Assembly: GCA_964431135.1 (NCBI GenBank)
Contig: CAYSIN010000001.1
Location: 5,096 to 69,095 of the forward strand
Direction of reading: 5' to 3'
DNA length: 64,000 nt
Origin: an uncultured Bacteroidales bacterium
Lineage (GTDB): Bacteria > Bacteroidota > Bacteroidia > Bacteroidales > GWA2-32-17
The position numbers were made by a program, and so were the translations under genes. The notes under the pieces are model-generated. The model was given only the letters and a program-made list of their open reading frames with translations, was not told the origin of the DNA and ran no database searches. How positions within the stretch are numbered: the stretch's first letter is position 1; every line of letters starts with the position of its first letter. Below are positions 1-54,000 of the stretch, piece by piece.

Positions 1-1810
1 CTATAGTTCCAGAGGCCGCAGGTGTATATAATTCAGATATGGTATTATTATATAAATTCACTGTGGTACCGTTAGTAACAACTATACCAGCAGAAGTAGA
101 AGAAGCAGCACTTGCGGTTATATCATAAATAGTATTATGGTATATGTTGGATAATGCATTTGTTCCTGATGCACCACAAGTAATTCCTATTATGCTTCCT
201 GCTGTTGTAGTTAAATGATGAATAGTATTATCATAAACATTTTGCATGGTAGTACCATTTCCACCTGCATTAATGGCAGTAATGTTGGCACCATTGGTAA
301 TGTTTTCGATAACATTATTAAATAGTTGATGTGTTCCCATGTTTACAGAAATGCCTGTTATATTACCAGTGCCACCTGTGCAATTTTTAATTGTATTGTT
401 TGAGATGGTTTTAACAGGTGCATTTCCATTTAAACCATCATAATCATAAATGGCAGTAAACACGGTAGCACCTGTAAGGGTTACATTTTCTATCAGATTA
501 TTTGTAATATACTTTGTTACAGTGGATGGTGAAGAAGAATTGGTATAATAAAAATTAACTGTACCACCAGAGCCCGATTTATTCAATAACGACACGTGAT
601 TACTATCTATGACTTGTGTACCGTTAGCGGGTATTGTATTGTTGGATTGTATTACCATTACATTGGCAGTGGTATTTGGAGTGAGATTAAAAATGTTTTT
701 ACGAATATATTGATTTTTTGCACTTCCCAAATGACGAATACCATAAACAACGGCACCATTAGCCACGGTTGAATAAATATCATTAATGGTATTGCCAATA
801 ACGTTATTAGTTATCATATTGTTATAATTATCAAGCATTATTCCATATATAGTTTGGGTGGCAGCACTTTTAAGGCTGATATTATTGTTGTTAAAATTAT
901 TGTTAATGGTAATAGTAGTAGGCAAAGTACCATTAGCGTGGTCATAAATTCCACCCAAAGTGCCAGAGGTATCTGTTCCATTGGAGGTTAATACATTTCC
1001 ATAAATATTCTTGGTTAGAACATTGTTAATGATAATACCATTAACCGATGATGTAAACACATTTATGAATGAAGAAAAATTGCCGGTCAACCCAAACGTA
1101 ATAGTATTGTTTCCTATTTCTAAATCATTAGCCATATAATTGCCCGTTTCAGAGCCCACTAAAACGATACCCATATTTACATCTTGTATAGTATTTCCCG
1201 TTATAACAAGATTGTTGAATGCTCCACTGGCACTGGTAATATCAGATTCTGTAAGCAAATCGGTAGCATTAGTACAACTTGTAGCAAAGATGCCAAAAGC
1301 ATTTTGATAAGTAACACCTAACTGAATGGTGTTATCCTGTATAGTAATATGTTCAGGTCCATCGGTGGTGGAAGTATAAAACAAAGCAACGCCAAATTCT
1401 GTCATATTATTGGTTGATGCGGAGGTAGTTGTATTGGAACTGTTTTCGTTCATAACAAAATGTTGAATGGTAATATAGTTACCACCGATAATTTTAAAAA
1501 TAGCATCATTTAATGTGCCACTTGTCTGAGGTGTAAATGCAGTAATTGTATTGCCATTACCTTCAATAACAATCGGATTTGATGAAGTTCCCGTAGCAGT
1601 AATCGTGTATCCTCCGAGCGTTGCAGTTTGCGGATTACCGGCAGTAAGATTTATGGTAACGCCACCAGTTCCTACCCCTTGTGTGTTTAAGTCAGTGATA
1701 GCTGCTTCAAGGGTTGCATAATCGCTAGGGATGTTTTTTGTCCCTGTAAGTTGCCCAAAGGTAAAAACTACCCAAAGTAACAAGCCTGTAAATAAAAATA
1801 AACGTTTCAT
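1..1810 (-). CDS. Secreted parallel beta-helix repeat surface protein, N-terminal ~603 codons only (gene continues past the left edge)
   Basis: Absent from ORF track because it is edge-truncated. Manual minus-strand translation from ATG 1810-1808 gives MKRLFLFTGLLLWVVFTFGQ (signal peptide). The frame is still open at position 2 (...NLYNNTISELYTPAASGTI). N/T/G/I-rich quasi-repeats are typical of right-handed beta-helix adhesins. No competing >=60 aa ORF is listed for 1-1938. Only both ends were translated codon by codon. Confidence 0.7.
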   Translation of the reverse strand, partial: MKRLFLFTGLLLWVVFTFGQLTGTKNIPSDYATLEAAITDLNTQGVGTGGVTINLTAGNPQTATLGGYTITATGTSSNPIVIEGNGNTITAFTPQTSGTLNDAIFKIIGGNYITIQHFVMNENSSNTTTSASTNNMTEFGVALFYTSTTDGPEHITIQDNTIQLGVTYQNAFGIFATSCTNATDLLTESDITSASGAFNNLVITGNTIQDVNMGIVLVGSETGNYMANDLEIGNNTITFGLTGNFSSFINVFTSSVNGIIINNVLTKNIYGNVLTSNGTDTSGTLGGIYDHANGTLPTTITINNNFNNNNISLKSAATQTIYGIMLDNYNNMITNNVIGNTINDIYSTVANGAVVYGIRHLGSAKNQYIRKNIFNLTPNTTANVMVIQSNNTIPANGTQVIDSNHVSLLNKSGSGGTVNFYYTNSSSPSTVTKYITNNLIENVTLTGATVFTAIYDYDGLNGNAPVKTISNNTIKNCTGGTGNITGISVNMGTHQLFNNVIENITNGANITAINAGGNGTTMQNVYDNTIHHLTTTAGSIIGITCGASGTNALSNIYHNTIYDITASAASSTSAGIVVTNGTTVNLYNNTISELYTPAASGTI

Positions 1811-1851
1811 ATAAATACTATTTAAGTTAAAAAAATATAAAATTCATTTTG

Positions 1852-1859
1852 CAAAGATA
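1852..1859 (-). promoter_or_regulatory. Candidate Bacteroidota -7 promoter box (TATCTTTG)
   Basis: Reverse complement reads TATCTTTG, matching TAnnTTTG, 41 nt upstream of ATG 1810. Confidence 0.35.
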
Positions 1860-1938
1860 ATAAATTTGAATTACAATATCAAAATTAGAAAAAAAATATT
1901 TTTATATGTGTCGATACTCATCTTTTAACCAGTTGGTG

Positions 1939-3192
1939 CTATTCATATCGCAAGGCATCGATAGGATTAAGTTTTGCTGCTTTGGTTGCAGGGAGATATC
2001 CCGATAAAATACTCACTGTAAAACAAAGAAGTACTCCCGATATCATCCAAAACCATGGAACAACGAAAGGACCTTTAATCAGCAATGCTATAATATTTCC
2101 AGCAATAACACCAAGTATTATTCCAAAAATGCCCCCCAATTGTCCAATGTAAATGGCTTCGATAAGAAATTGTTGCTTGATAGTTTGTGGAGTGGCTCCC
2201 ATTGCCTTTCGTGTTCCTATTTCCTGAGTTCGTTCTGTAACCGAAACAAGCATAATGTTCATAAGCCCTATGGAAGCACCTATTAGTGTAATTATTCCAA
2301 TCAATGTAGCAGCAATAGTAACATAACTAATATTTTCCATCAGCATATTGATAAGACTGTCGCTTTTGGAGATTTCAAAATTACTTGCCTCGCCAGCCCT
2401 AAGTTTGCGTATTACTCTGAAAATGCTTTCTGCTTCGGATATGGCAGGGTCAATCATCTGAACATCTTGTGGCATTACATTTATAACAAAACTAGGATTT
2501 TGTAATGATAATTGAGAACGTGCATTTTGAACGGGTATGTAACATTGTTTATCGCCACTGCCGCCAAAACTTGACCCTTTGGATTTTAAAACTCCGATAA
2601 CGGTATAACGCCCATTGCCGATTAATATCTTTTTCCCTACCGGATTTTCGTTGGCAGGAAACATGGTGGTTTGAATTTCCTTACCAATAATTACTACAAA
2701 CGACCCTTGCATTGCTTCCTGAAAGGAAAAATTCCGTCCTTCTTCGATTTCATATCCTGAAACGGTAAAATAATTTTCGTCCACCCCAAAAACTACGATA
2801 TTAGGATTGGACTTTTTGGATTGATATTTTACTATTCCCATGTCTGTGCCTTTAATAGAAATAGCCGCCACAGAAGGGAAGGAATACCTTTCTTTGAATT
2901 GCTGGGCTTCTGCAAAACTGATATTCTTGTATTCAATCCGTTCATGGTCTTGTCCACTTCTTTTCATAGACCAACTGGTTATTCTAAATGTATTGCTTCC
3001 CAGATGACTAAAATTGGAATTTAAAGAACTGCGTATGGCTTCTATGGCGGTTAAAATGCCCACCAGTGCCATAATGCCAATGGCAATAATGAAAACTGTG
3101 AGTATGGCTCTCAATTTATTGGTCTTTAAACTTTGAGACGCTACTCTTAAATTCTCTGCTACCAGTGCACTTCTTTTTAAATGAACTCGCAT
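1939..3192 (-). CDS. ABC transporter permease, MacB/FtsX family (no ATPase partner in window)
   Basis: 417 aa. N-terminal TM (LRAILTVFIIAIGIMALVGIL), a large periplasmic MacB-like domain, then a C-terminal FtsX-type 3-TM bundle (TERTQEIGTRKAMGAT... motif). Confidence 0.85.
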   Translation of the reverse strand: MRVHLKRSALVAENLRVASQSLKTNKLRAILTVFIIAIGIMALVGILTAIEAIRSSLNSNFSHLGSNTFRITSWSMKRSGQDHERIEYKNISFAEAQQFKERYSFPSVAAISIKGTDMGIVKYQSKKSNPNIVVFGVDENYFTVSGYEIEEGRNFSFQEAMQGSFVVIIGKEIQTTMFPANENPVGKKILIGNGRYTVIGVLKSKGSSFGGSGDKQCYIPVQNARSQLSLQNPSFVINVMPQDVQMIDPAISEAESIFRVIRKLRAGEASNFEISKSDSLINMLMENISYVTIAATLIGIITLIGASIGLMNIMLVSVTERTQEIGTRKAMGATPQTIKQQFLIEAIYIGQLGGIFGIILGVIAGNIIALLIKGPFVVPWFWMISGVLLCFTVSILSGYLPATKAAKLNPIDALRYE

Positions 3193-3284: not shown

Positions 3285-4409
3285 TTATTTCGTATGGTCT
3301 TTTATTTTGATAAATGATTTATTGATTTCGTTCATGCGGACATAGTTTTTAAAATGTTTGCGGGTCAATTTTTCTAATTTATCCAGTTCTTCTATACTTA
3401 ATTCATCTATAAAACAGGTAGGGTCTTCGTTAAAAACATCGCCGGTATGATAATAAGCCATAACACGGCAACCGCCGCATGTCCAGTTATATTTACAGTT
3501 GCCACATTTACCCTTTAACGAAGGTCGATTAATTATTTTTTTCATTAAATCTGATTCAAATAGAATTTCTTTTAACGGTGTTTGATATACATTGCCAGCC
3601 GAGATATTATCAGAAAGCAAAGGACAAGGTGCTACATCACCTGCGGGATTGATGCCATAGAAAGAACCCACCCAGCAACCAACCGAGGGTTGAATGGGCA
3701 CTTCTGTAGAAAAAGCCTTAATCCCTGTAATTTCTTCATAATCGTTGGGATTTAGAAAAAAGGGAACAAAACTTACAAAACCATGATACGATTTCATAAG
3801 TGCCGGATGAAGATATTCTTTCAAAATCTTTTTATCAAACATCATTTCTTTATGTGTTGAATGTCGTGGCGAAAAGGGAATTCGATTGTAGGGCAAACTT
3901 TGCTGTATTATTCTTTCAATAGTATTTGAAAATGTTTGACAATTAAAACTTCCCATGGTTACAGAGATATTGGTGTTGATGCTATTTTCCAGCAACAGGT
4001 TCAACTTTTCTTCAAAAAAAGATATTTCACGATAACGAGTATCTTCATTTTCATCGTCAAACGAATTAATGCCTAACGAAATGAGTAAGTTATGCCCCAG
4101 TATTTTTTTTAATTCGGTTATTGTTTTTTGGTTGATAAGTGAACCATTGGACGAGATGCCTATTTTAAATCCCAATTTGTTTGCCCTATCCAATAACTCA
4201 AAGGCATCATTTCTTAATAAAAATTCACCACCGGAAAAATCAATAAATTCAGTACCAAGATTTCTGGCAGGGATTAAAATGTAGTTGATTAAATCAAGGG
4301 TACTTTTATCTTCTTCCCACAATGCTGGATTGTTAGAACCACTCGAGCAATGCGGACATCTGAAATTACAACGTCGTGTTGTCTCAAAATATAAAGTATG
4401 GAAAAGCAT
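3285..4409 (-). CDS. Radical SAM enzyme with C-terminal SPASM domain (peptide/protein-modifying maturase type)
   Basis: 374 aa. N-terminal CNFRCPHC (CxxxCxxC) radical-SAM cluster motif. C-terminal Cys pattern C-x16-C ... CGNCKYNWTCGGC ... DPTC fits a full SPASM twin auxiliary 4Fe-4S domain. Confidence 0.9.
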   Translation of the reverse strand: MLFHTLYFETTRRCNFRCPHCSSGSNNPALWEEDKSTLDLINYILIPARNLGTEFIDFSGGEFLLRNDAFELLDRANKLGFKIGISSNGSLINQKTITELKKILGHNLLISLGINSFDDENEDTRYREISFFEEKLNLLLENSINTNISVTMGSFNCQTFSNTIERIIQQSLPYNRIPFSPRHSTHKEMMFDKKILKEYLHPALMKSYHGFVSFVPFFLNPNDYEEITGIKAFSTEVPIQPSVGCWVGSFYGINPAGDVAPCPLLSDNISAGNVYQTPLKEILFESDLMKKIINRPSLKGKCGNCKYNWTCGGCRVMAYYHTGDVFNEDPTCFIDELSIEELDKLEKLTRKHFKNYVRMNEINKSFIKIKDHTK

Positions 4410-4483: not shown

Positions 4484-7400
4484 TTATTTTTTTATCATAT
4501 TCATATTGTATTGCTTGTTATCCAGCAAAACTTTTACAAAATAATTGCCTTTTGCTAAATGGTGCAGTGACAGGGTTTCCGATATATCTTTTTTAGTGGG
4601 TATGATACATTTGGATAGAACCTTTTGTCCTGTGCTGTTATATAGTTCAACACTTATATTTTTCAACATATATTCTGTTTGGATAGACAGTGTAAAATTA
4701 TTGTCGGTAGGATTTGGATAAAGGGCAACATGGATACCTGCTTCCATATCGGAAATAATAGAATTGGCTTGCTGAACGGTAAAACTCATAACGGTAGAAC
4801 ATCCATTACCACTGGTAACCGTAACCGTATAAGTACCTATGGGAATATTGTTTAAATCTTCGGTAGAAGCACTATTGTTCCAACTAAATATATATGGTGG
4901 AACGCCATTGGTTATGGTTATATCAATAGCACCGTCTGAAGCCGTAGCAGACGAAGCATTGGTAATGCTGGCTATTAAAGTAACCGATGCCAAAACAGTA
5001 ACAGTAATCTGTGATGTATCCGTACAACCGTTGGAACTGGTACCTGTTACTATATAAGTATTGGTTGATGGTGGTGTAAAAGCAATTCCATCCGAAACGC
5101 CATTGTTCCATTCATACGAGGAAGCACCGTTTCCAGTCAAAATTACCATATCACCTTCACAAACGGGGTTAACGCTTGCAGTAGCCGTAACGGATGGATT
5201 TGGATTGACTGTTACAGTATAAGTAAGTGTATCCTGTTGTGAACCATTGTAAGCCACCAGCGTTACATTGCATGAACCCGTTGTATTAAATGTTACGGTT
5301 GGACTGGCTTGTGTGCTGGAAGTAGGCGAACCACCAGAAAAAGTCCAAGCATACGAAGTTGCATTGGTACTTGTATTGGTAAAGGTTATCGATTGTCCTT
5401 GACAAACAGAACTGCTCGAAACGGTAAAGTTTGCAGTGGGAGCATCACTCGAAGTAATTGTTGCTACAACGGGAACTCGTGCACTGGTACAAGGGTCTTG
5501 CTGTACTTGCCAATTATAAAAATAATAGTAATAATTGGTTGCACCTGCTGCCGTATTTCCTGTTATGGAAATCAGATCGGTCACAGTATAGGGATAATTA
5601 GCACCTGCATTATCTCTCCATAAATTATTTTGCCCATAAGTACCCAAAACATATCCTGTACCTGCGGGAACATGGAAATTTAGCGTTACGGTTTGTGTAC
5701 CACTTGGAATATTAACAACTAACGAATCTATAACCATACCATTACTGTTTTGAAGCCAAATAGTTCTGGATGCGGTAGAATTGGAATATACTTTTACCGA
5801 TTTAATAGTAAGGTCGGCTAATACGTCAAAAATAAGACCAAAATTTCCATTATAATTTGTTCCATAATAGTATCCACCGGTTGATGTTTTATTGATAAGT
5901 CCGGCAGCATGAACAGTATGTATTATGTCATTTTCAACATAATACGTTGTAGTTTGCGAGAGCACAGGTGTTGTATAAGATGTTCCCGTTGCAATGGGTG
6001 TTCCTCCTGTTGCAGTAGTGTACCATACAAGTGTGTCACTGCTACTTGCGGTAAGGGTAACACTGCATGGTCCAACACAAGAACCTCCTGTTGCAGTAGG
6101 ACTTGTTGGCAAGTTAATGGTAACATAACTTGTTTTAGTCATGATATTATCTCCAAAACTGTTAGTTGCTTTTAGCGAAACGGTATATGTTCCGCTGGTG
6201 GTATAGGTATGCGTAGGATATTGCAATGTGGAGGTTGTTCCATCACCGAAATTCCAAAGCCATGAAGTGGGTTCGTTGGTAGAATTGTCCATAAATTGAA
6301 TTATTCCCGTACAACTGGAAGTTGTATTGCTACAAAAATTGGCAACAGGTGGTACATCATGTGGTGTACCTCCCTTATAAACAATATAGTTTGCCAATCC
6401 CCCAATCAGGTCACTGCCATAAGAAATATACATGTATCCGTTTATTCCCCAAGTTGAGCCCCATGAATTTCTCATTATCCAATATCCACCACCGTCAATA
6501 GTGGCACTATCGCACCACCCAACCAACACTACGGCATGATTCAGTTCGCTTCCTGTTTCAGTAAAAATGCCACCTGTATAATTTGAAAATGCAGTACTGC
6601 CCGCATCTATAGTAACCCATATTGGACCGTAATCATAAATAGCCTGTTTCATATTGTCATCGGGAGGAATGTAATTTTGGTCTTGCCCTGGTACATCTGC
6701 ATAACTGTCAATGGTTTCGTGAGGAGGATAGCCCGAAGTATTGCAGGTGCCTGTATTTCCTGTACTGTTACATGTTGTAGGACAGTCTGTTTCATATACA
6801 GCACCACCACCTAATGGATTGGCTCCTGTATAAGAGGCTATCCATGCCTGATGAGCACACCATCCACCGTCACAACCGTAGCAATCCTCAGTGTAACAAT
6901 CGGTAACAAACTCTTCGGAAATAGTTTTTGTAACGCCATCTCTAATTTTAATATTGCATTCCAATGTGGCAACAGATGCATACGCCCAGCAATCACCGCA
7001 ATACATTTGATTTTTTATGGGAGTGCAATGTGGACGCCAATCCCAACTGGAAGGAACAGATTTGGTTGTAGAAGTAACATGTTTGGGCAATTCTTTTTTC
7101 TGCGGAAGATAATTGCCTGTGTATTTACCACTGGATATAACCGTTATGGAATAAGTTTGTATGGGTATCGCATTCTTTTCCCAAGGACGTCTTAATTCAA
7201 GGTTTAATGTAGTAGTACCTACCGATGTTCCTTTGTAATGAATAATCTGAATACCTGATTGCCCTACACGATGTTTTCCATTTTTGGAATCTATGAAGTT
7301 ATCGGCAATAAACAAATCATCTCCCACATTTTCAATAGAACGTTGTATGGATTTATCCATTGCATTGGGTGATTCACACCAAATATATCCCGTAGAAGAT

Positions 7401-7546
7401 AATCGTGGCAATTTTATTTCCAACACCTTATCCGGGGACAGATTGATGGTTTGACCGTTATTGTTTTCATGAACGCTTATAAAATTTTGTCCATAACCGT
7501 ATGCTACAATTAAAAGGACGCTGAATAAAAGTAATGCTTTTTTCAT
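4484..7546 (-). CDS. T9SS-secreted multidomain papain-family (C1A) cysteine peptidase with N-terminal chagasin-like (I42) inhibitor domain, PKD/Ig modules and one SprB repeat
   Basis: 1020 aa with a signal peptide. Chagasin loop motifs: SSTGYIW, VGQSG, RRPWE. C1 catalytic motifs: QMYCGDCWAY (Cys), NHAVVLVGW (His), RNSWGSTWG (Asn). Two PKD-like modules (WNFGDGTTS..., WTFSGGSPTS...). One SprB-type repeat (GVPPYIFSWNN...TYTVTVTSGNGC). C-terminal type-A sorting domain (LYPNPTDNNFTL...GNYFVKVLL). Confidence 0.88.
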   Translation of the reverse strand: MKKALLLFSVLLIVAYGYGQNFISVHENNNGQTINLSPDKVLEIKLPRLSSTGYIWCESPNAMDKSIQRSIENVGDDLFIADNFIDSKNGKHRVGQSGIQIIHYKGTSVGTTTLNLELRRPWEKNAIPIQTYSITVISSGKYTGNYLPQKKELPKHVTSTTKSVPSSWDWRPHCTPIKNQMYCGDCWAYASVATLECNIKIRDGVTKTISEEFVTDCYTEDCYGCDGGWCAHQAWIASYTGANPLGGGAVYETDCPTTCNSTGNTGTCNTSGYPPHETIDSYADVPGQDQNYIPPDDNMKQAIYDYGPIWVTIDAGSTAFSNYTGGIFTETGSELNHAVVLVGWCDSATIDGGGYWIMRNSWGSTWGINGYMYISYGSDLIGGLANYIVYKGGTPHDVPPVANFCSNTTSSCTGIIQFMDNSTNEPTSWLWNFGDGTTSTLQYPTHTYTTSGTYTVSLKATNSFGDNIMTKTSYVTINLPTSPTATGGSCVGPCSVTLTASSSDTLVWYTTATGGTPIATGTSYTTPVLSQTTTYYVENDIIHTVHAAGLINKTSTGGYYYGTNYNGNFGLIFDVLADLTIKSVKVYSNSTASRTIWLQNSNGMVIDSLVVNIPSGTQTVTLNFHVPAGTGYVLGTYGQNNLWRDNAGANYPYTVTDLISITGNTAAGATNYYYYFYNWQVQQDPCTSARVPVVATITSSDAPTANFTVSSSSVCQGQSITFTNTSTNATSYAWTFSGGSPTSSTQASPTVTFNTTGSCNVTLVAYNGSQQDTLTYTVTVNPNPSVTATASVNPVCEGDMVILTGNGASSYEWNNGVSDGIAFTPPSTNTYIVTGTSSNGCTDTSQITVTVLASVTLIASITNASSATASDGAIDITITNGVPPYIFSWNNSASTEDLNNIPIGTYTVTVTSGNGCSTVMSFTVQQANSIISDMEAGIHVALYPNPTDNNFTLSIQTEYMLKNISVELYNSTGQKVLSKCIIPTKKDISETLSLHHLAKGNYFVKVLLDNKQYNMNMIKK

Positions 7547-7625: not shown

Positions 7626-9215
7626 CTATCTTTTTTTTGATAATGAAATAGCCATTTTTACTGCTTTTTCAGCATTAACAATTCCACCGGTTTTGGAAAG
7701 TTTTGTAAAAGGTATCCGTTTATTATATTCAGATTTAGAAGGAAGTAAAACACGAATTTTATAAATATTAACGGAAGAAAGAATAATATTACGTATTTCG
7801 GATGATGTGAGTTCAGGGAAATAGGACATTAGTAAGGCGGCAATGCCTGTAACCACAGGACATGAGGCGCTTGTGCCATTAGATGCACGAAAACTGTTAT
7901 GAAGTCCAGTAGAAAAAATTTTGACACCGGGAGCAAATACATCCACCGTTTTTTTTCCGTAATTGCTAAACGGAGCAGCCAGATTTTCGTCCACCTTAAT
8001 TCCTGATGCCCCTACATCTATCCATCGTTTAGTCAGAAGTTTGTTATTAATTCCTACAGGACTTGGGAAATGTGGAATTTTATCATTGTTGTTAGATTCG
8101 TTACCTGCTGCATGAATAAAGATAACACCCTTACTTTCGGCATAAGTTATGGCGTCATCTACCATATTTTTTTCGGGTGAATATTGTTTTCCAAAACTCA
8201 TGTTCAGGATTTTTGCACCATTATTAACAGCATATTTAATGGCATTGGCAACATCCTTATCACGTTCATCACCACCGGGGACAATGCGTAAAATCATTAT
8301 TTGAACACAATCGGCAATGCCAAAGGCATTATTTCCATTGTGTCGGTCGGCAGCAATAATTCCTGCTGTAAATGTCCCGTGATTGCATGATGGTCCCATA
8401 ATATCATTATTCCCGTATATTGAATCATTTATATTGAAAGGATTATCGCCAACTATATATCGTGCATCAAAATCAGGATTTAATTCGGTCTTTAATTTTT
8501 TTTCTGTAACAAGAGCCGCATTTTTTATTTGAGCAAGTTCATATCCTGCCTTTTTTGATTGATAATATCGTGAGGCAAAAGTTTTAATCGTGTCGTTTTG
8601 GCATGTGAGCAATGGTTTTAATTTTGATTCGGTAAGCGTATCGGTATGTAAATATTGCTTCAGTGCATTTTCCATACGCGTAACATTTTTAATAACTATA
8701 GTATAATAGGTCAATTCTTCGTTGGCTTCTTTTACACGGTTTTGATAATCATTTCTTATTCTGATGTACAAATCAAACTCCTTTTTATCATTCCCTTTCA
8801 AATGAAGTGTATCAATGTTGTTAAATTTTTTAAACATTCGGCTATACATGCGTGTTACTTCCAGCGATTCGGCATCAATGTTTTGTCCTTTGGCATTACC
8901 TAAGAAATTCCAGCCATGCACGTCATCTATAAAACCATTATGGTCATCGTCTTTTCCATTGGCAGGAATTTCGTTTGGGTTCTGCCACAAAAAATGTTTA
9001 ATATCTTCATTGGTAGTATCTACACCACTATCAAGAATAGCCACAATTACAGGTTTAGGTTTTCTGTCTTTTAATAAAGTATAAGCCTTATGAAGGCTAA
9101 TACCCGCATAGCCATCATCAGTATAATCTTGAAAATGCCAGTTTTGTTGTCCGAAAGAACAAATAGAGCCTATCATCAAGGTTATAAGCATTAACTTTTT
9201 CATCATCTTCGTCAT
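7626..9215 (-). CDS. Subtilisin-family (S8) serine peptidase, secreted
   Basis: Catalytic triad motifs VAILDSGVD, HGTFTAGIIAA, GTSASCPVVTG. The track start 9239 is TTG. The first ATG at 9215 (MTKMMKKLMLITL... signal peptide) lies 11 nt downstream of a near-consensus box TAACTTTA (9227-9234). Confidence 0.85.
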   Translation of the reverse strand: MTKMMKKLMLITLMIGSICSFGQQNWHFQDYTDDGYAGISLHKAYTLLKDRKPKPVIVAILDSGVDTTNEDIKHFLWQNPNEIPANGKDDDHNGFIDDVHGWNFLGNAKGQNIDAESLEVTRMYSRMFKKFNNIDTLHLKGNDKKEFDLYIRIRNDYQNRVKEANEELTYYTIVIKNVTRMENALKQYLHTDTLTESKLKPLLTCQNDTIKTFASRYYQSKKAGYELAQIKNAALVTEKKLKTELNPDFDARYIVGDNPFNINDSIYGNNDIMGPSCNHGTFTAGIIAADRHNGNNAFGIADCVQIMILRIVPGGDERDKDVANAIKYAVNNGAKILNMSFGKQYSPEKNMVDDAITYAESKGVIFIHAAGNESNNNDKIPHFPSPVGINNKLLTKRWIDVGASGIKVDENLAAPFSNYGKKTVDVFAPGVKIFSTGLHNSFRASNGTSASCPVVTGIAALLMSYFPELTSSEIRNIILSSVNIYKIRVLLPSKSEYNKRIPFTKLSKTGGIVNAEKAVKMAISLSKKR

Positions 9216-9311
9216 TTTATCGTGTGTAAAGTTAGACAAATTTTTCTCAGTCTTTCCTGACTAAAAGAATATTCAAAAAATAAACTTTGGTTTGATATGG
9301 ATTACAGCACT

Positions 9312-9381: not shown

Positions 9382-9522
9382 TATGAAGAAGTGGCTGCAT
9401 GGTGAGATTGCTTCGCTACGCTCGCAATGACGAGATGGGGCGAATAGTTACAAATAAGTTTTTAAGGGATGACTAGTTATTTGTCCCCCAAATAATAAAG
9501 GTAAATAAATTCCATTTGGTAT

Positions 9523-12346: not shown

Positions 12347-15300
12347 ATGAAAAAATATTTATTTTCTATTGTACTGATATTCAGTATGTTAAATTTTTAT
12401 GGACAAGCATACCTTATCAGTTCAGGAGGAACTGTTTCTACCTGTTCGGGTTATTTTTACGATAGCGGTGGTAGCGGAGGTACATACCAGAACGATGAAA
12501 ACTATACCATGACGATATGCTCAAGTAATGGTGGGCACATTGTTGCTACATTTACTGCTTTCAATACAGAAGCAAGTTATGATTATTTATATATATATAA
12601 TGGACCGAATACAGGCAGTCCATTAATAGGTTCTTATAACGGCACTACATCACCTGGCACTATTACTTCCAGTGGAACCTGTCTTACTTTTGTGTTTACT
12701 TCTGATGTTAGTGTAATGTATGATGGATGGGCTGCAACATTATCTTGTACCACACCAGTTGCTCCAAATACACAGGATTGTGCAGGGGCAATACCATTAT
12801 GCTTTTCTACTTATTCCACTACTGCTTCTTATTCTGGTCAGGGAAATTTCCCAACTGAAATTCCAACACATTTACCATATTCAGACGACATGTGTCCCGG
12901 CAATTGTTTACTGGCAGGAGAACTTAACGATGTTTGGTACACATTTACCGTTCAAACTTCTGGAACACTTACATTTCAGATTACTCCCAATAGTAGCGGT
13001 GATGATTATGATTGGGCGGTATATAATTTAACCAATGCCGAATGTGCAGATATTTATTCGAACCCAAGTTTGCAGGTAAGTTGTAATTTTTGCGGTGTAC
13101 CAGGAGCGACAGGTCCTACCGGTGGAGGTTCTTCTTCGTGTATGTATGGCGACCCGGCTTATTGTACAACTTACAATTCTGCTATTAGTGTAACTGCTGG
13201 ACAAACATACGTGGTTAATGTAAGTAATTTCAGTTCAACACAAAATGGATATAGTATTACTTTTGGAGGTACGGCTCAAGTAGTGGACAATACAGGTCCA
13301 TATTTGTACAATGTTGTTCAATCGCCGGCATGTGGACAAAATCAGGTTATCATTCGTTTCAGTGAAAATGTGTCATGCACTACGGTGCAGGCATCCGATT
13401 TTACTATCAGCGGTCCAGGTGGACCCTATACCGTTACATCTGTGAGTGGTGCTATTTGTGCTGCTGGGGGCAGTTACGAAAGAGATTATGTATTAACAGT
13501 AAGCCCTGCTTTTGTACAAGGAGGAACCTATACTATTAGTTTAGTAAGTAATTCTGTTTCTGATATATGTTCACATCCAACCGGTGGGCAAAATTTGACC
13601 TTCAGCGTTACCGGTGTAACTGCTTCGGCTTCGGTAGTAAGTAATGTTTCATGTTATGGTGGAAATAATGGCTCTGCAACGGCAAGCGGTTCAGGCGGCA
13701 CTTCTCCATATTCTTACTCATGGAGCAATGGTTCTACGTTGGCAAATCCAACCGGTTTGGCTGCAGGAACTTATACCGTTACGGTAAGAGATGCCAATGG
13801 CGTTTGTAATGCAACGGCACAAATCACAATAACACAACCTACAATACTTGCCGCTACCATTAGTTCTTCACCTGTTTTATGTAATGGTGGAAGTACCGGT
13901 TCTGCAAGCGTAAGTCCTTCTGGCGGAACGTCTCCTTATTCATATTTATGGAGTAACAGTTCCACCGCATCTTCTATTTCCGGTTTATCACAAGGAACTT
14001 ATTCTGTTACAATAACTGATAATAAGGGTTGCACTTTGGTAAAAAGTACCACAGTATCTCAACCAACAGCGTTATCTGTTTCAACATCTCAGACAAATGT
14101 GAGTTGCAATGGAGGGAATAACGGCAGTGCAACTGTTTCGGTAAGTGGAGGCACTCCCTTATATTCATACACATGGAGTAACGGTCAATCAACAGCAACA
14201 GCATCAGGTTTAACGTCGGGCACATACACCGTTACAATTCGTGATGCCAATAGTTGTTCAACAACGCGTACTTTCACTATTACACAGCCCGCTACTTTGA
14301 CTTCTTCCATTGCCTCGCAAACAAATGTTTCCTGTTTTGGTGGCTCAACAGGCTCTGCAACAGTAACACAAAGCGGTGGCACTTCTCCTTATAATTATAC
14401 ATGGTCCAATAGTCAAACCACACAAACTGCTACAGGATTAACAGCCGGTACTTATACTGTTACTGTTAGAGATGCCAATAATTGTACTTCTATTTCGTTG
14501 GTAACAATCTCGCAACCAACTGCGGTGAGTGTTGGCATTTCGGGTTCAAATGTAACCTGTAACGGTAGCAGTACAGGAAGCGCTACTGCAAATCCTACTG
14601 GTGGAACGCCAACCTATACCTATTTATGGTCCAACAGTCAAACATCGCAAACCATTTCGGGACTTGCTGCCGGTACTTATACGGTTACAGTCCATGATAT
14701 CAATAATTGTTCGGCTGTAAACAGCATAACCATAACACAACCATCAACATTAACTTCTTCCATTTCATCACAAACAAATGTAAGTTGTAACGGTGGCAAT
14801 AATGGAACGGCAACCGTAACAGGAAGTGGTGGTACACCTTCTTATACTTACACCTGGTCTAATAGTCAAACATCACAAACAGCCACAGGATTGTCTTCGG
14901 GAACTTACTATGTTACTGTAAAGGACACTCATAATTGTACTTCGGTATCGTCTGTTACCATTACGCAACCCGCAGCACTGTCCGTAAGCATGACAAAGAC
15001 TAATGTTGCTTGTAATGGTGGAAGTACAGGCAGTGCAACAGCAACACCAACAGGCGGAACACCGGGCTATTCTTATCAATGGACTGGTGGACAAACAACA
15101 CAAACTATTTCAGGATTGTCAGCAGGAACTTATTATGTTACGGTGAGAGATGCCAACAATTGTTCACAAGTAAATTCTATTTCCATAACACAGCCAACTG
15201 CTGTAAGTGCCAGCATTTCATCTTCCACTAATGTAAGTTGTAATGGCGGTAATAATGGAACGGCAACAGTAAATGCAACAGGTGGTACACCGTCCTATAC

Positions 15301-18300
15301 TTATAATTGGTCAAACAGTCAAACTACGGCTACTGCTACTAGTCTGGCAGCAGGAACATATAATGTAACCGTATATGATGCGAACAATTGCACTTCTACT
15401 ACTTCAGTAAGTATTACCCAACCGGCTGTTTTAAATGCAACGTTATCTTCTACTAATACCAGTTGCTATGGTGGTTCAAATGGAAGTGCCACAGCAACAC
15501 CCACAGGAGGTACCGGCCCTTATACTTATTTATGGGTTCCTGGCGGACAAACAGGTTCAACAGCAACGAATTTAAGTGCAGGTACCTATAATGTAACTAT
15601 TACTGATATTAAAGGATGTACAAAAACAGGCTCTGTAACGGTATCACAACCAGCATCTCTGACACTTACTATGAGCAAAACAGATGCTACTTGTGGTAAC
15701 AGTAACGGAAGTGCTTCTGTTTCGGTAAGTGGAGGGACACCTTCTTATTCATATTTATGGTCTAACAGTGCTACTACAATTTCTATAACCAATGTACCTG
15801 CTGGTACTTATTCAGTAACCGTAACTGACAGTCATAGTTGTACCAATGTAAATAACGTGGCAGTAAATAATTCCGGTGCTCCGGTTGTAACCGTAAATTC
15901 AGTTACAAATGTTACTTGTAACGGTGGCTCAACTGGTGGAGCCAGTATTTCTGCCAGTGGTGGAACACCATCTTATTCGTATCACTGGTCTAATGGTGCA
16001 ACAACAACATCCATATCTAATGTAGCAGCAGGAACTTATTCTATTACTGTAACCGATGCATTGACATGTATAGGTACGGCTTCAGTAACTATTACTCAAC
16101 CGTCAGCAGTAGTAGCAACTATTACAAGTAATATCAGTCCATTGTGCAATGGTGCTTCCAATGGAAGTGCTACGGTAAGCGCTTCCGGTGGAACACCCGG
16201 ATATAATTATCAATGGTCTAATGGACAAACAACTGTAACTGCTATAAATTTGGCAGCGGGCACATACAGTGTTACAGTTAAGGATACCCATAATTGTACA
16301 ACAACAACTTCCGTAACTGTCACTCAACCAACTGTTGTTACCTCATCCATCACTTCATCATCCAATGTTAGTTGCAATGGAGGTGCTAATGGTAGTGCAA
16401 CTGCTTCTGGAAGTGGTGGTACACCTGGTTATACCTATGGATGGTCCAGCGGCGCTAGTTCGGCTACAGCATCGGGATTAAGTGCAGGCACTTATTATGT
16501 TACTGTAAAAGATGTCAACAATTGTTCTTCAATATCTTCTGTAACTATATCGCAACCTGCGGCACTAACTTCCACTTTCAACACAACCAACGTAAATTGC
16601 AATGGTGGTTCGAATGGCTCATTAACTGTTAATCCAACAGGTGGGACATCACCTTATACCTATTCGTGGTCAAACAGTCAAACAACACAAACCATTAACG
16701 GACTGATAGCAGGTACATATTCTGTTACCATTACTGATAGTCATAGTTGTACCATGGTCAACAGTGCAACTGTTACTCAACCCACCACGTTAACTTCTTC
16801 CATTACTGCTCAAACCAACGTATCATGTAATGGCGGAAACAATGGAAGTGCTACGGTAACAGCCACGGGAGGAACAACAAATTATTCCTATCTATGGTCT
16901 AACAGTGCAACTACAAGTTCTATAACGAATGTTACTGCTGGTACTTATTCTGTGACGGTAACCGATGCGCACTTGTGCACCAATACTTCTTCGGTTACTA
17001 TTACACAGCCATCAGTAATTACTGCAACAACGTCTGGAACAAGTGTTCTTTGCAACGGTGGAAATACAGGAACGGCTTCTGTTGCTGCCAGTGGAGGAAC
17101 ACCGGGATATACCTATCTTTGGTCAACTACTGCAACCACTTCATCCATTAGTGGATTAGCGGCAGGTACTTATTCCGTCACCATTCGCGATGCTAACAAT
17201 TGTTCCAAAATTGCAACCTATACCGTAACTCAACCTGCTGTATTAACTGCTACCATATCATCATCAACACAAGTTTCATGTTATGGAGGAAACAATGGTG
17301 CAGCAACAGTTAGTGTATCAGGTGGAACTACAGCATATTCATATTTATGGTCATCGGGACAAACAACGGCTATGGTTAATGGATTGGTTGCCGGAACCTA
17401 TACCGTAACAGTTAGAGATGCCAACAATTGTTCTACAACGGCTAATGTTACCATCAATCAACCAACTCAACTTATATCTACCATGGGAATTCCTACTAAT
17501 GTTTCGTGTAATGGTGGAAATAACGGAACTGTTACTGTTACAGCATCAGGAGGAAGCCCAACGTATTCGTACCTTTGGTCGAATGGGCAAACTGCAGCAA
17601 CAGCCTCCAATTTAACTGCAAATTCGTATTCAGTCACCATAACCGATTCTCATAGTTGCACTTCAACGGCAAGTGTTACCATAACGCAACCGGCTGTTTT
17701 AACTTCCAGTATTTCTGCTTCAAACCAAGTAACATGCTTTGGAACAGCAACAGGTTCTGCAACTGTAACACAAAGCGGTGGCACATCACCTTATTCTTAC
17801 TTATGGTCAAATAGTCAAACGACTCAAACAGCGACGGGCTTAACAGCGGGAAATTATACAGTAACCATTACTGATAATAAAGGCTGTACAACCACAAGTT
17901 CTGTTACAATAACACAACCGTCGGCACTCTCTGCCAGCATTAATTCTTCCACAAATGTATTGTGTAATGGTGGGAACAATGGTTCTGCATCGGTTAGTGT
18001 TACAGGAGGAACACCTGCGTATGTTTACAGTTGGACTACAGGGCAATCAAGTTCATCTATTACGGGGCTTACTGCCGGGAACTATACGGTAACAGTTACA
18101 GATAATAACAGTTGTACAAGTATTGCCAATGTAACCATTACTCAACCTACTGTTATTTCAATAACTATGAATTCTGTTAATGTATCCTGCCATGGTGGAA
18201 ACAATGGTTCTGCAACAGCATCGGTTTCTGGTGGTACACCTGCATATACATATATCTGGTTGCCTGGTGGAGCGGTTACATCATCTATTAACGGACTTTC

Positions 18301-21300
18301 TGCAGGGACTTATACTGTAACGGTAACTGATGATAATGGCTGTACAAAGGCTTCCGTTGTAAATATTACTGAACCTACTGCCATGACGGTTAATCCAACC
18401 GTTGCGGATGCTACTTGTGGCAATTCAAATGGAACAGCAAGCGTTACAGTTAGCGGCGGAGTTAATCCTTATTCTTATCACTGGTCAACGGGCGCAACTA
18501 CCGCATCTATTTCAGGTATTCCCGCAGGAAATTATGGCATTACTGTGAGCGATGCCAATAGTTGCAGTACCATATCTACTGTTTCCATTAATAATACAGG
18601 TGCACCTACCATTACGGTAGATAATGTAACACCTGTTGTTTGCTTTGGTGGCAGTAGTGGTTCCATATCCATTTCTGTTACAGGCGGAAGTCCAAGTTAT
18701 ACTTACAGTTGGTCTAATGGCGCAGATAGCACTTATTTGACTGGACTTACAGCAAACAATTACTCCGTCACAGTAACCGACAGTATAGGATGTCAGGCAA
18801 CGCAAAATATTACGATAACTCAACCAACGGCCATCAATGCTTCTATTATATCCGTACTGCCTCCATCATGCTATGGTTATTCTAATGGTTCTGCTTCGGC
18901 AGTAGCATCAGGTGGAACACCTTCTTATTTTTATTCGTGGTCAAATGGTGCCAATACGGCTAATGTTAATAATTTATCAGCAGGAAACTACACCGTAACT
19001 GTTACCGATTCACATGGTTGTACGACAACCGCTTCTACCAGTGTTTCTCAACCAGCAGGTATGTCTGCCATGTTGGTTTCTCAAACGAATGTTTCCTGTC
19101 ATGGAGGTAACGATGGTGCTGCTACCATTTCCGTTTCGGGTGGTACATCACCTTATACCTATTCATGGAATAATGGTTCTACATCAGCGTCTATTAGCAA
19201 TTTGATAGCAGGCAGTTATACGGTTACCATTACGGATAATAATATGTGTACGATTTCTTCCGGTGCTTCTATTATTGAACCACAAGCCATCAACATTAAT
19301 GTACCTATTTTAAATAATGTTACCTGTAATGGTTTAAGTAATGGTGCGGCATCTGTTAATGTTACAGGTGGAACCTTGCCTTATGGATATCAGTGGTCAA
19401 ACGGTTCAACTATAAATAGTATTACCAATGTGCCTGCTGGTACTTATGATTTAACTGTAACCGATGGACATTTATGTACATCAACTACCCAAATTACCAT
19501 AACAGAACCATCATCTATAATGTCCACTGTTACGCAAACAGCATCGATTAGTTGCTTTGGCGGTAATAATGGTGCAGCAACGGTCAGTGCATCAGGTGGA
19601 ATAAACCCTTATGGTTACCACTGGTCAACCAATCAAAGTACGCCAACCATTTCCAATTTAAGTGCAGGAACCTATTTCATTACGGTTAACGATTTGAACG
19701 GTTGTACCAAAGTGGACAGTATTGTTATCGTTCAGCCCACTGAAATCGTATTATCCTTTGCCGATGATTCGGTACTTTGTTATGGTGCAGTCAATGGAAA
19801 TATTGATTTGACTGTTAACGGTGGTACACCTTCTTATACATATCTTTGGAGCAATAATCAATTAAGTGAAGATATAACAGGTTTGGCGGCAGGCACTTAT
19901 ACTGTTACGGTTCACGATGCTAATCATTGTCCTATGATATCTTCTACAACTATTTATGAACCTCCAGTTTTGACCAATACCTTCAACATGATAAATTCAC
20001 ATTGCAATCTGTCAGATGGAAGTTTGCAAACCAGCGTTTCAGGCGGTGTTGGTCCTTATACTTATTTATGGGATGCACAAGCCAATGGACAAACAACATC
20101 TACTGCCATTAATTTAAGTGCTGGCACTTATTCTGTTTCGGTACACGATAGTCATGGCTGCCTGTCTGTATTTACAGGCAGTGTGTCGGATATTAATGCA
20201 CCACAACTTTCATTTAATATTGTGCAATTACCTAATTGTAATGGCGATTCTACCGGTAAAGTTTATTCAACGGTGCAAGGTGGTACTAATCCTGTTTCAC
20301 TATTATGGTCAAATGGAGTTACCGCTGATTCTATTGTGAATGTACCTGCTGGTATTTATTATTTAACGGCAACCGATGGTGCAGGTTGTATTACAATTGA
20401 TTCTGTTACAGTTACGCAACCCAATGTGTTGGCATTTAATATTGATGATGTTGTTTCACCAAGTTGTTTTGGACTTACCAATGGTTCTATTCATCTGCAT
20501 GCTGAAGGAGGTACTTTACCATATACTTATACATGGCAGGATGACCAGGGAACATCTCTTGGCAACAATTCATCCATAACAAATGTTGGCGTTGGCAATT
20601 ATTTTGTTACTGTAGTCGATTCGCATGGTTGTAGCACAATGTTAAATCTTAGTTTATCGCAGCCATCCTTATTAGTTGCAGATACGATAAGTCATATCTC
20701 TCCACTGTGTGCCAACAGCAATGATGGAATGGCTAATGTACAGGTTTCTGGTGGTACTACTCCTTATACTTATATTTGGAATGATGCTTTGCATACGCAA
20801 AATGATACATTAAGTAATGTAGATGGGAATCATTTCTATTATGTAACTGTAACTGATGCCAATGGCTGTACCATTATTGATTCAGTCTATATTACTGCAC
20901 CTGCTCCAGTCAATGCTATTGCTTCAGGATTTTCAGCCAATTGTAATTCACAAAATGGCTGGGCATACGTTCAGGCAAGTGGTGGAACATTACCTTATAC
21001 CTATTTATGGTCCACAGGTGCAAATACTGATACGGTACAAGGTTTATCCAGCGGAAATTATCATGTAACTGTTTACGACAGTCATGCATGCTCTGCAATT
21101 CAAACGGTTCAAATTACCAATCTGCCGGCTGGCAATATTGTAGTTGATTCTATTCAGGATGTTTCATGTTATGGTGAATCATCAGGCAATATTAGTATAA
21201 GCGTGAATGGTGGCACAGCACCTTATTCATATTTATGGAGTAATGGGAGTACTTCATCCTCTTTATCAGGTGTGGTTGCCGGACAATACTCTGTAACCGT

Positions 21301-51004: not shown

Positions 51005-51012
51005 TATATTTG
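51005..51012 (+). promoter_or_regulatory. Candidate -7 box (TATATTTG)
   Basis: 42 nt upstream of ATG 51055. It overlaps the track TTG start at 51010, which argues against that start. Confidence 0.4.
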
Positions 51013-51054
51013 CCTTTAATTTTAAAGACCAACAATAATTTTAATTTTTCAATC

Positions 51055-54000
51055 ATGAAAAAGATATTTTTGCTTTTATTTATTTTTATAGCAACTTTTT
51101 CTGTTGCTCAAAAAGGTAATTCTGTAGATGTAAAACCAAAAGGAATTATACAAGTTGTTGAAAAAAATAAGAAAAGTGCTTTCAAAACAAGAATTATATG
51201 GAACAATAATGTCCAGTGCAACTCAAAAACTATTTTCTCTGCTTATATTCCAAAAGGGTTTACTTGCTTTGGCTTTGGGTGGAAATTGGCAAAAAATATA
51301 AAATCCATTGATATTAAAATTAATTATAGAGTTAAAATAGAGGATAAATGGTCGTCATATAAATTGATTCCCGGTGATATTTCTCCAAAAGAAACACCTA
51401 CCAACATGTATTGGACAGATTTGGAATTTACACCAAATCAAAATAGCGCTCACTTGATTGAGTTTGAAATAATCGGTATTGAAAATTTTTATTTAGACAC
51501 ATTCATGTTAGATATGTATTATATAGAACAGGATGTAGAATTATTAAATAATAGAATGAAAGGTATTAAAGCATCTTGCCCTTATAGACCTTATGTTATT
51601 CCACGTTCAGTATGGTTAGACCCATATTATACTCAACCACCCTATACTTCTACTATAATCAATCCAACGCATTGTGTAATTCATTACGGTGCGTCACCCG
51701 ATACTTATAACGATGGTGCTGCCATTGTTCGTTCCTATTGGAATTATCATGTTAATACTAATGGCTGGTCAGATATAGGATATAACTATCTGATAGATAA
51801 ATTTGGAAATCTATATCAGGGAAGACAAAATACAAGTCCTACTACTCAAGACGTTCAGGGTGCACATGCAGGTGCGTCTAATGCATATTCCATTGGATTT
51901 AATTTTTTAGGAAATACAGATGTAACTTTACCTACAACCATACAATTGGACACGGCTAAACAATTTTTAGCATGGTGGTTTAATTGGAGAGGTTTTGACC
52001 CAACTTCGTCGGCACTATTACAGTTGCAAAGTGGAGGTTCGGCTGTTGTACCACGTATTTTAGGACATAAAGATACAAATATAGGAGGTACAGATTGTCC
52101 CGGAACTGTTTTATATTCTAAATTAGGCGAAATCAGAACAGATACCAAAAATATTATTTCCGCATGTTCTTTTACTTCCCCTACTAATTTAACAGTTGGA
52201 ACACCTTCATGTCCAAATAATTCTGTTACTTTCAGTTGGCAAAATTCCGGTACAGGTTGGTACATCCTTCTTTCAAATTCTTCTTCCTATACCAATCCCT
52301 ATATTAAATGGGTGTCCGGATTAACATCCTATACTGGACCCGCAGGTTTTGTTTTACAAGCAGATGGAACAACACCCCTCACCTTTTTACCTTCTACTAC
52401 ATATTACTGGAAAATTTGGGATGGTTCTACTTTTACCAGTGGACCTTCGTTTACCACACTAAATTGCGATAATATTAATCCTACTACAGCCATTTCTACA
52501 CCCGTAAACTGGAAAACACAAGATTTTACAGCCACCTTTTCCGATTCAGATAACGTTAATGTGGAAAAAGCTTTTTATCAGGTACTCGATTTTGATGGAC
52601 AATATTGGAGTGCTAATCCTAATCGTGGTTTTTTTGGCGATAACTTTGATATTTTACAACCTCACTGGCACGTTTTTTCGGGTACATGGAACGTTACAAA
52701 CGGCGAACTGATACAAAGCGATGAAACGCAGAACAATACTAATATTTATGCAGCATTAACGCAAACATTGTCCAACCGTTATTTGTATCACTTTATTGCA
52801 AAACTGGGCGGAAGTGAAACAAACAAACGTTTCGGTTTTCACTTGTTCTGCGATGATGCAAACTATACTAACCGGCACAATTCTTATTTTGTTTGGTTCA
52901 GAATTGACGACCAAACACTTGAATTTTATAAAGTAGTGAACGATTCCTTTACGCAAGAACTCGTTATTCCAAATGTTACCACAAACTTGAATCAATCGTA
53001 TGATTTTAAAATAACCTACGATAGAATTTTAGGAAAAATAGCCGTGTGGCGTGATAATATTTATATGGGAAGTTGGACAGATACATCACCTTATTCTTCC
53101 AATGGAAATTATATCAGTTTTAGAACAGGGAACTGCACTATGAATATTACCGAATTAAAAGTGTATCGTTCGCGTTATCCTACGGTTACGGTTACATTAG
53201 GCGATAATACCAAAGACATACGCTATCAAAATCCCAATCCTGCCACATCATCAGCCAAAATCAAATCTATAGTCGTGGACGGGAACTATAATCTCTCGTC
53301 CATAGTTTATCACGATTTAAACGTTGACTGGACACCCCCTATCTTATCGACAGTAAACGATGGCTCTTCTTCTGATATAGATACCGTTTTCGACAATACT
53401 ACGGTATCGGTCAATTGGCAGGCAGGTGTTGATGCCCATTCAGATATTCAGGAATATTTTTATGCATTGGGTACTACTGCGGGCAGCGACGATGCCGTTG
53501 CATGGACTTCTTCAGGAACTAATACTGCGGTTACCTTGTCCAATTTGAATTTAACGTTCGGAAATAAATATTATTTCTGTGTTAAAGCGGTGAATCATGC
53601 CGGTTTGACTTGCAATCCCATTTCTTCCGATGGTTTTATTGTTTCATCGCTCAATCTTCCGGTAGCCGATTTTTATGCGGTAGAGGATACGATTTATATA
53701 TCCAACCCTACAGCACTTTTTGTCAATCAAAGTCAGCATGCTGTATCGTATTTATGGGATTTTGGTGATGGTGGAACTTCTACACAAGTCAACCCATGGC
53801 ATACGTATGCACAGACAGGTATTTATCCCATTCAACTTGTTGCCATGAACCCACCCTTTCCTAACGATACACTGTTAAAGAATAATTATCTGTATGTATT
53901 GGACAATAATTTTATCATTCCCAATCCTTATGTCCATCAAATTTATCCCAATCCGTTTATTGATAACATTCACATTGTTTTTGTCCGTCCTTTTACCGGA

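Follow-up and report, generated by a model that had tools for sequence, protein, structure and literature searches.

The stretch of DNA analysed here, 64,000 nucleotides of contig CAYSIN010000001.1 from an uncultured Bacteroidales bacterium (assembly GCA_964431135.1, positions 5,096 to 69,095 of the forward strand; hereafter the window), contains at 4484..7546 on the minus strand the gene of a secreted, multidomain precursor of a papain-like C1A peptidase, in which a domain of the chagasin family of inhibitors (MEROPS family I42) precedes the catalytic domain. On the basis of the domain arrangement, the conservation of the inhibitory loops and two structure models, we consider it fairly probable that the protein is a self-inhibited C1A zymogen, whose I42 domain serves as the pro-domain in place of the I29 propeptide. 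The same arrangement recurs in at least 170 proteins, and the chances appear about even that these I42-C1 proteins form a class of papain-family zymogens in its own right that spans phyla. Within such a class, a tight-binding inhibitor fold that normally acts in trans would have been recruited as a pro-domain in cis, part of the chagasin family would have its cognate targets, and the inhibitor would be released in a manner unlike the acid-triggered unfolding of I29 propeptides.

Architecture of the protease precursor

The open reading frame is uninterrupted, starts with ATG, ends with the stop codon at 4484-4486 and encodes 1020 residues; all features of the gene given below lie on the minus strand. 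From the N- to the C-terminus the chain consists of a signal peptide, the I42 domain, a linker, the C1 domain, a PKD domain, an Ig_7 domain, a module of about 160 residues, a second PKD domain, an Ig_7-like domain, a SprB unit and a type A C-terminal sorting domain (CTD) for the T9SS (type IX secretion system). Pfam matches were counted against the curated cutoffs in a scan of the whole protein and, in addition, in scans of C-terminal segments alone. The signal peptide (7490..7546, residues 1-19, predicted to be cleaved at MKKALLLFSVLLIVAYGYG|QNF) is a hydrophobic N-terminus ending in AYGYG|Q. The Gln at position +1 is shared with close homologues, and a Gln immediately precedes the I42 start in 34 of the 42 CTD-positive relatives with the same fusion.

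The Inhibitor_I42 domain (7127..7486, residues 21-140, all-beta) matches the profile PF09394 over its core of residues 36-136 with 53.1 bits (cutoff 27.2, E 4e-14), covering profile positions 2-91 of 91. Among solved structures, the closest to this segment by sequence are amoebiasin-2 (3m86, E 7.6e-7), chagasin (2nqd/2nnr, 1.4e-4) and the ICP of Pseudomonas aeruginosa (2wgn, 8e-4). The three chagasin loop motifs are present in the expected order, namely SSTGYIW in loop L2 (BC; 7379..7399, residues 50-56), VGQSG in loop L4 (DE; 7253..7267, residues 94-98) and RRPWE in loop L6 (FG; 7178..7192, residues 119-123), with the core G, Y, W, G and RPW residues intact. In the AlphaFold2 model (see below) the domain has nine beta-strands and a predicted local distance difference test (pLDDT) value above 90. 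A direct fold match to chagasin was not obtained with Foldseek, as the C1 domain dominated the matches of the two-domain model.

The Peptidase_C1 domain (6380..7057, residues 164-389) matches PF00112 with 143.6 bits and contains the motifs CGDCWAY (183-189), GCDGG (224-228), NHAVVLVGW (336-344) and NSWG (360-363). The catalytic set Gln180, Cys186, His337 and Asn360 is present and aligned, from which proteolytic activity is predicted. By sequence the domain is nearest to plant papain-like enzymes and cathepsins, with dionain, bromelain and ficin as PDB matches; by structure, Foldseek gave a template modelling (TM) score of 0.86 to actinidin (2act) and of 0.82-0.87 across actinidin, cruzain and cathepsin K. 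Judged by profile matches, loop motifs and catalytic residues, each of the two halves is an ordinary representative of its family, I42 or C1A. These results bear out the first-pass annotation, made from the sequence alone, which had pointed to the three loop signatures, to a complete C1A domain behind them and to the inhibitor fold in the propeptide position.

The latter placement follows from the borders of the domain. The I42 domain begins 1-2 residues past the predicted cut of the signal peptide, and 23 residues separate its end from VPSSWDWR, a papain-type mature N-terminus in which P165 and W170 hardly vary within the family; the domain therefore occupies the position of a propeptide. The I29 propeptide itself (PF08246) found no match in the protein at E<=1 in the whole-protein Pfam scan, while the plant and protist proteins matched in a search with residues 1-398 do carry it, and relatives lacking I42 have a pro-region of about 55-65 residues at the same position. 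The 23-residue linker (7058..7126, residues 141-163) begins with a conserved GKYTG and then turns variable and gappy (about 150-163), a part likely to be the processing region and to contain the predicted cleavage site. In the model of this protein, pLDDT falls from 92 at residues 141-150 to 71 at residues 151-160.

A family of I42-C1 fusion proteins

A word-indexed database search with residues 1-398 yielded about 48 clusters containing both PF09394 and PF00112. They include proteins from metagenome-assembled genomes (MAGs) of Bacteroidales and Anaerolineae that are named merely 'C1 family peptidase' by NCBI, and the taxonomic breadth stated here is that of a few such named MAGs. An exhaustive HMMER search of 1.84 billion representatives at 50% identity returned 638 proteins at E<=1e-30. 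Among its top representatives, 138 were newly fetched, and 122 of these carry the fusion; drawn from the best 150 representatives, the number of fusion clusters is a lower bound. When all 326 fetched proteins were classified with hidden Markov models of our own, 169 were I42-C1, one I42-I42-C1, 86 C1-only, 68 I42-only and one I42-I42. I42 always precedes C1 in these at least 170 fusions, and the reverse order occurs in none of the 326 proteins. The fusion, which had been presented as unusual in the first-pass annotation, is in fact a large and recurrent family.

The fused proteins range from 265 to 3100 residues in length, and their catalytic residues are nearly completely retained (Gln and Cys in 170/170, His in 169/170, Asn in 165/170). 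The tether between the two domains has a median of 17 residues and measures 10-29 residues in 160 of the 170 proteins; such a narrow and short spacing is as expected from a geometrically constrained interaction in cis. The three loops form the most conserved part of the fused I42 domains (G53 97%, Y54 88%, W56 96%, G95 95%, R120 96%, P121 83% and W122 91%), and a relaxed constraint is seen only at the NP that opens L2. Compared with 68 standalone I42 proteins, the frequencies in the fused domains are practically those of genuine inhibitors: 0.97 versus 0.99 for G53, 0.96 versus 0.99 for W56, 0.95 versus 1.0 for G95, 0.96 versus 0.94 for R120 and 0.91 versus 0.93 for W122. Judged by these residues, the fusions appear to pair live enzymes with live-looking inhibitors. 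The sequence motif of the mature N-terminus, LPSSFDWR, is likewise conserved in the family, as in processed papain-like enzymes. A single origin of the fusion was examined on the C1 domains, whose nearest neighbours mostly share their label (166/168 for fused and 75/80 for unfused domains); average-linkage clustering fails to separate the two groups.

The nearest relative, P0189, has 1019 residues, is 66% identical over its full length and shows the same architecture. A scan of genome contigs with a single protein located four loci, all in uncultured MAGs, the closest being Bacteroidales MAGs at 56-60% identity. A CTD like that of the query is found in only about 42 of the 170 fusions, and the Anaerolineae fusions lack it and carry other C-terminal modules instead; the I42-C1 core is therefore older than the routing through the T9SS and independent of it.

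Individual members deviate from the common layout. P0282 has about 214 residues between I42 and C1, in P0202 the I42 domain starts at residue 471 of a 2063-residue protein, and one member contains two tandem I42 domains ahead of C1. One Bacteroidales MAG (locus L002) carries two paralogous protease genes on the same strand about 4 kb apart, at 334..2196 (620 residues, 41% identity to the query) and at 5935..7359 (474 residues, 55%).

Structure models and the predicted interface

The AlphaFold2 model of query residues 21-398, calculated from 68 aligned sequences, reached a pLDDT of 93 and a predicted TM score (pTM) of 0.92, with dips only in an insertion loop of the I42 domain and at residues 151-160. 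As a test that could have failed, the full-length relative P0033 (38% identical to the query) was modelled as well and gave a pTM of 0.81, in spite of disorder in about 85 of its 422 residues, namely in the signal peptide, the linker (151-180) and the C-terminal tail. If the two domains were placed independently of each other, a pTM of about 0.55-0.6 would be expected from the definition of this score, corresponding roughly to the fraction of the larger domain. Since both values lie far above this range, a defined I42-C1 interface is predicted in both models.

The nature of this interface is suggested by the DSSP assignments. Both models contain an isolated beta-bridge at the hydrophobic residue preceding the invariant Gly of L4 (V94 in the query, L105 in P0033) and a further one at the second Gly of GCDGG (G228 and G248, respectively). 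We take the latter residue to be the equivalent of papain Gly66, which hydrogen-bonds the P2 residue of the substrate. In chagasin complexes, the wedge of three loops fills the active-site groove, and the DE (L4) loop is accommodated in the non-prime site, like E-64 (PMC3317066, PMC7863939). The bridge pattern of the two models fits this canonical docking of L4 in the non-prime cleft. In the PDB the two-domain model found only matches to the catalytic domain, with a query TM score (TMq) of at most 0.52, and no solved single-chain I42-C1 structure.

Proposed mechanism and alternative functions

These data show the identity and order of the domains, the conservation of inhibitory loops and catalytic residues throughout the family, the constrained linker and a confident, rigid packing in the models. 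From them we infer that I42 contacts C1 at the active-site cleft and is a true inhibitor of the enzyme; the place, time and agent of its removal are likewise conjectural. In the scenario that we propose, the precursor would first be exported by the Sec system and lose its signal peptide. The three-loop wedge of I42 (L2 STGYxW, L4 GxxG and L6 RPW) would then dock into the C1 cleft of the same chain, where the tether of about 20 residues would hold it in place, so that the enzyme would remain blocked in the periplasm and during transport. In this member from the Bacteroidota, the type A CTD would route the folded precursor through the T9SS, and the PKD, Ig, SprB-type and unannotated modules might serve as a stalk or as binding modules. 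Activation would finally involve a cut in the variable part of the linker (about 150-163) plus the removal or degradation of the I42 domain. A coupling of I42 release to T9SS passage is speculation, and could not be general, given that only about a quarter of the fusions carry a CTD.

Intramolecular latency, as already suggested in the first-pass annotation, fits the conservation of the loops, the intact catalytic residues, the narrow linker and the two rigid models, while its structural core, the docking of the loops into the cleft, is a prediction from the models and not directly seen in them. Several further points weigh against such a latency. DSSP reports no bridge partners, and the pairing of V94 with G228 is our interpretation of two separate assignments; moreover, the confidence of AlphaFold2 is self-reported, and the program can over-pack domains. 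A mean-field direct coupling analysis of 171 fusion sequences (effective number about 160) gave no loop-cleft covariation signal. Of the 30 best inter-domain pairs, no more than 4 included loop positions. The highest-ranking pairs seem to reflect lineage, and the loops are too conserved to covary, which leaves the analysis uninformative. The query also departs from the inhibitor consensus, with LS for NP in L2 (residues 49-50) and GQSG for GxGG in L4. A C1 gene lies within 4 kb of the standalone I42 genes nearest to the fused type in none of four loci, and there is therefore no operon precedent for a cognate pair. Finally, chagasins bind their targets with picomolar to nanomolar affinity (PMC7863939), because of which cleavage of the linker alone would not free the enzyme, and no mechanism of I42 release is evident from the sequence.

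The last point leads to the first alternative, namely that the I42 domain stays permanently attached, either as a reversible lid responding to substrate, pH or surface attachment, or as a partial occlusion of the cleft that reshapes specificity like the corresponding domain of cathepsin C. Such an arrangement would be in line with the rigid packing of the two domains and with the conserved linker start GKYTG, partly ordered in the model (pLDDT 92 at residues 141-150). The tight binding of chagasins speaks against a simple release, and cathepsin C's exclusion domain is listed among the beta-barrel, inhibitor-like folds (PMC7863939). However, the canonical wedge covers the S and S' sites together with the catalytic Cys and leaves no space for a substrate. 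In addition, the variable, gappy linker of lower confidence resembles a processing site, and LPSSFDWR is conserved as a mature N-terminus. We regard a permanent attachment as rather unlikely.

The strict I42-C1 order, the tether of 10-29 residues in 160 of the 170 proteins and the high pTM of two members point to a partner in cis, and a free pan-C1 inhibitor placed 20 residues from an open C1 active site would be expected to bind there. These features make it unlikely that the protein is a bifunctional surface protein, the I42 domain of which inhibits papain-like proteases of a host, predator or competitor in trans, with the C1 domain being independently active. Precedents for this function are provided by standalone bacterial chagasin-like proteins, such as Cip1 of P. 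syringae (PMC5014320), and by the surface-anchored Cpi1 of Pseudomonas (bioRxiv 10.64898/2026.06.02.729523). An N-terminal I42 domain would, moreover, be exposed at the distal tip of a T9SS-anchored stalk, and standalone I42 genes are unlinked to C1 genes.

A role restricted to folding has to be considered as well. C1A pro-domains are intramolecular chaperones, and I29 propeptides also assist folding; in the position of a propeptide, the I42-derived domain might therefore aid the folding or export of C1 without meaningful inhibition. A pure chaperone would, however, not need the three inhibitory loops, on which the strongest selection falls and which are retained at the frequencies of genuine inhibitors, and we consider this possibility very improbable. 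An artefact, be it that faulty sequencing or assembly joined an inhibitor gene to a protease gene or that the motifs match by chance, found no supporting point and is already refuted by the single uninterrupted reading frame, the I42 match at E 4e-14 and 170 independent proteins from many assemblies with the same architecture.

C-terminal modules and T9SS signal

An array of further modules follows the C1 domain. The first PKD domain (6116..6352, residues 399-477, Pfam PKD_4/PKD) is followed by an Ig_7 domain of the CHU_C-associated Ig-like type (5930..6109, residues 480-539, Pfam), by the unannotated module of about 160 residues (5447..5929, residues 540-700), by the second PKD domain (5207..5446, residues 701-780, 40.4 bits) and by a second Ig_7-like domain (4994..5197, residues 784-851), the 22.8 bits of which remain below the Pfam cutoff of 27.3. 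The module at 540-700 has no Pfam match at E<=10 and no sequence relative in the PDB. It is rich in Tyr, Asn and Gly, has counterparts in 12 related C1 proteases (E 1e-14 to 1e-65), including P0189, P0043, P0207 and P0022, and is probably an undescribed binding or stalk domain.

The single SprB-type repeat unit (4763..4990, residues 853-928, Pfam core 860-893) is absent from the whole-protein hmmscan even at E<=1, and was detected with 30.7 bits against a cutoff of 28 (PF13573, residues 860-893) when the segment 849-937 (window about 4736..5002) was scanned alone. The chain ends with the T9SS type A sorting domain (4487..4723, residues 942-1020), which matches Por_Secre_tail (PF18962, residues 942-1013) with 40 bits against a cutoff of 27 and the NCBIfam model TIGR04183 (T9SS type A sorting domain) with 36.5 against 23. 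An N-terminal signal peptide combined with a C-terminal TIGR04183/PF18962 domain is the pattern of a type A T9SS cargo. The further modules named in the first-pass annotation (PKD/Ig and a single SprB repeat) are thereby found.

The SprB unit matches about 37 repeats of a 3318-residue adhesin encoded in the same window (best domain E 5.6e-14), which had been taken as a hint of domain exchange among T9SS cargos. In a generic sense the modules are indeed shared. The identity between the unit and the adhesin repeats, however, is 34% on average and 41% at maximum, compared with a mean of 48% among the adhesin repeats themselves, and the unit is already present in the orthologue P0189 at 65% identity. 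Being nearer to the unit of P0189 than to those of the adhesin, it argues against a recent exchange with the latter. According to these comparisons, the protease and the adhesin share a module family, with no recent exchange between the two genes.

Genomic neighbourhood

Upstream of the protease gene, on the same strand and separated by a gap of 79 bp, lies a gene for a subtilase of family S8 (Pfam; 7626..9239, minus strand). The same arrangement of S8 and protease genes is found beside the orthologue P0189. An S8 homologue of 44% identity is near but convergent in the Bacteroidales MAG L001 and absent in L002 and L003; the S8 genes of other loci are at 1353..2942 in L005 and at 9509..11185 in L001. 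The link is too weak to regard the subtilase as a conserved activation partner, an assignment that we reject, and as a processing partner it is a possible candidate. The subtilase of the window has no T9SS CTD match and stays under all NCBIfam cutoffs.

Downstream, at a distance of 74 bp, is a radical SAM/SPASM gene (3285..4409, minus strand) that is under every NCBIfam equivalog cutoff, its best match being NirJ2/AhbD-like at about 121 bits versus 500. A gene for a MacB/FtsX-type permease is also located downstream, and neither of the two has an evident connection to the protease. A promoter and terminator scan yielded nothing on operon structure, the sigma-70 model used being unsuited to Bacteroidota.

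Further genes of the window relate to the T9SS. The adhesin mentioned above (12347..22303, plus strand, 3318 residues) has an N-terminal CUB domain, 35 Pfam SprB repeats with a period of about 76 residues and a CHU_C type B T9SS signal. At 51010..54168 on the plus strand, a protein of 1052 residues is encoded that combines an N-acetylmuramoyl-L-alanine amidase domain (Amidase_2) with PKD and Por_Secre_tail domains; it is the third T9SS-type cargo of the window and possibly a secreted cell-wall hydrolase. T9SS machinery genes were not identified in the 64-kb window, and no test was aimed at machinery elsewhere in the same genome.

In other genomes, the standalone I42 genes nearest to the fused type encode proteins of 130-154 residues (L006, L007, L009, L010, L011 and the JGI contig of P0142). 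Their neighbours are unrelated, comprising hydrogenase maturation genes, a heat-shock operon, Lgt and ChrB.

Implications and comparison with known systems

Bacterial chagasin homologues have been a puzzle, as many of the genomes that encode them possess C1 peptidases in small number or not at all, and for most homologues no endogenous target is known. Those that have been characterised, a small number, are directed at proteases of the host. By tethering I42 to an intact C1 enzyme, a large protein family offers natural cognate inhibitor-enzyme pairs for direct study. If the I42 domain is a latency element, the pro-domains of papain-family zymogens would be of at least two unrelated kinds, one of them using a wedge of picomolar to nanomolar affinity, which raises the question of how the inhibitor is released. 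From a practical point of view, these proteases, which are secreted and modular and come from uncultured Bacteroidales and Anaerolineae, could be produced in latent precursor form in the search for new enzymes. Prokaryotic C1A peptidases with several domains were explicitly not analysed in a survey of the papain family from 2023 (PMC10380794).

The closest relatives of the I42 domain are chagasin and the ICPs, represented by T. cruzi chagasin (2NQD), E. histolytica amoebiasin-2 (3M86) and P. aeruginosa ICP (2WGN), which belong to the same Pfam family and share the loop order with the predicted all-beta query domain of about 110-120 residues. The known members, however, are free-standing proteins of about 100-170 residues that act in trans, whereas the I42 domain of the query is tethered by about 20 residues to the N-terminal side of C1. 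With the I29 zymogens propapain and procathepsins L and K, the precursor has in common an N-terminal pro-region before a mature N-terminus of the xPxxxDWR type and, presumably, latency. In these zymogens the I29 propeptide is small and helical, and its C-terminal strand passes through the cleft in reverse direction. In the query, by contrast, the pro-region is a predicted beta-sandwich of an unrelated inhibitor family, and Foldseek aligns only the catalytic domain to procathepsins.

The gingipains RgpB and Kgp (family C25) are cysteine proteases secreted by the T9SS with a type A CTD, and are kept latent by a beta-rich N-terminal pro-domain with a loop in the active site. They nevertheless belong to clan CD instead of clan CA, possess an unrelated pro-domain and have no sequence relationship to the query. 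Cathepsin C (dipeptidyl peptidase I) carries an N-terminal beta-barrel, inhibitor-like exclusion domain which fills part of the cleft of a papain fold (PMC7863939). Unlike the I42 domain as envisaged for the query, it remains part of the enzyme after activation, its block is confined to the sites beyond S2, and it does not belong to family I42. Staphostatin and staphopain likewise provide a dedicated bacterial inhibitor for a papain-like protease, but as separate polypeptides encoded in an operon. That I42 can be joined to other modules was described in 2009 for a stefin-chagasin fusion of B. fragilis (PMC2784779); this is a fusion of two inhibitors, in contrast to the inhibitor-enzyme fusion reported here. 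A full-text literature search, outside which the founding paper on the chagasin family lies, retrieved no description of an I42-C1 fusion or of a chagasin in a T9SS context. The I42-C1 architecture can already be read from the Pfam annotations precomputed for public proteins; what sets it apart from the known systems is the combination of its two halves, presumably a C1A zymogen with a non-canonical, inhibitor-derived pro-domain.

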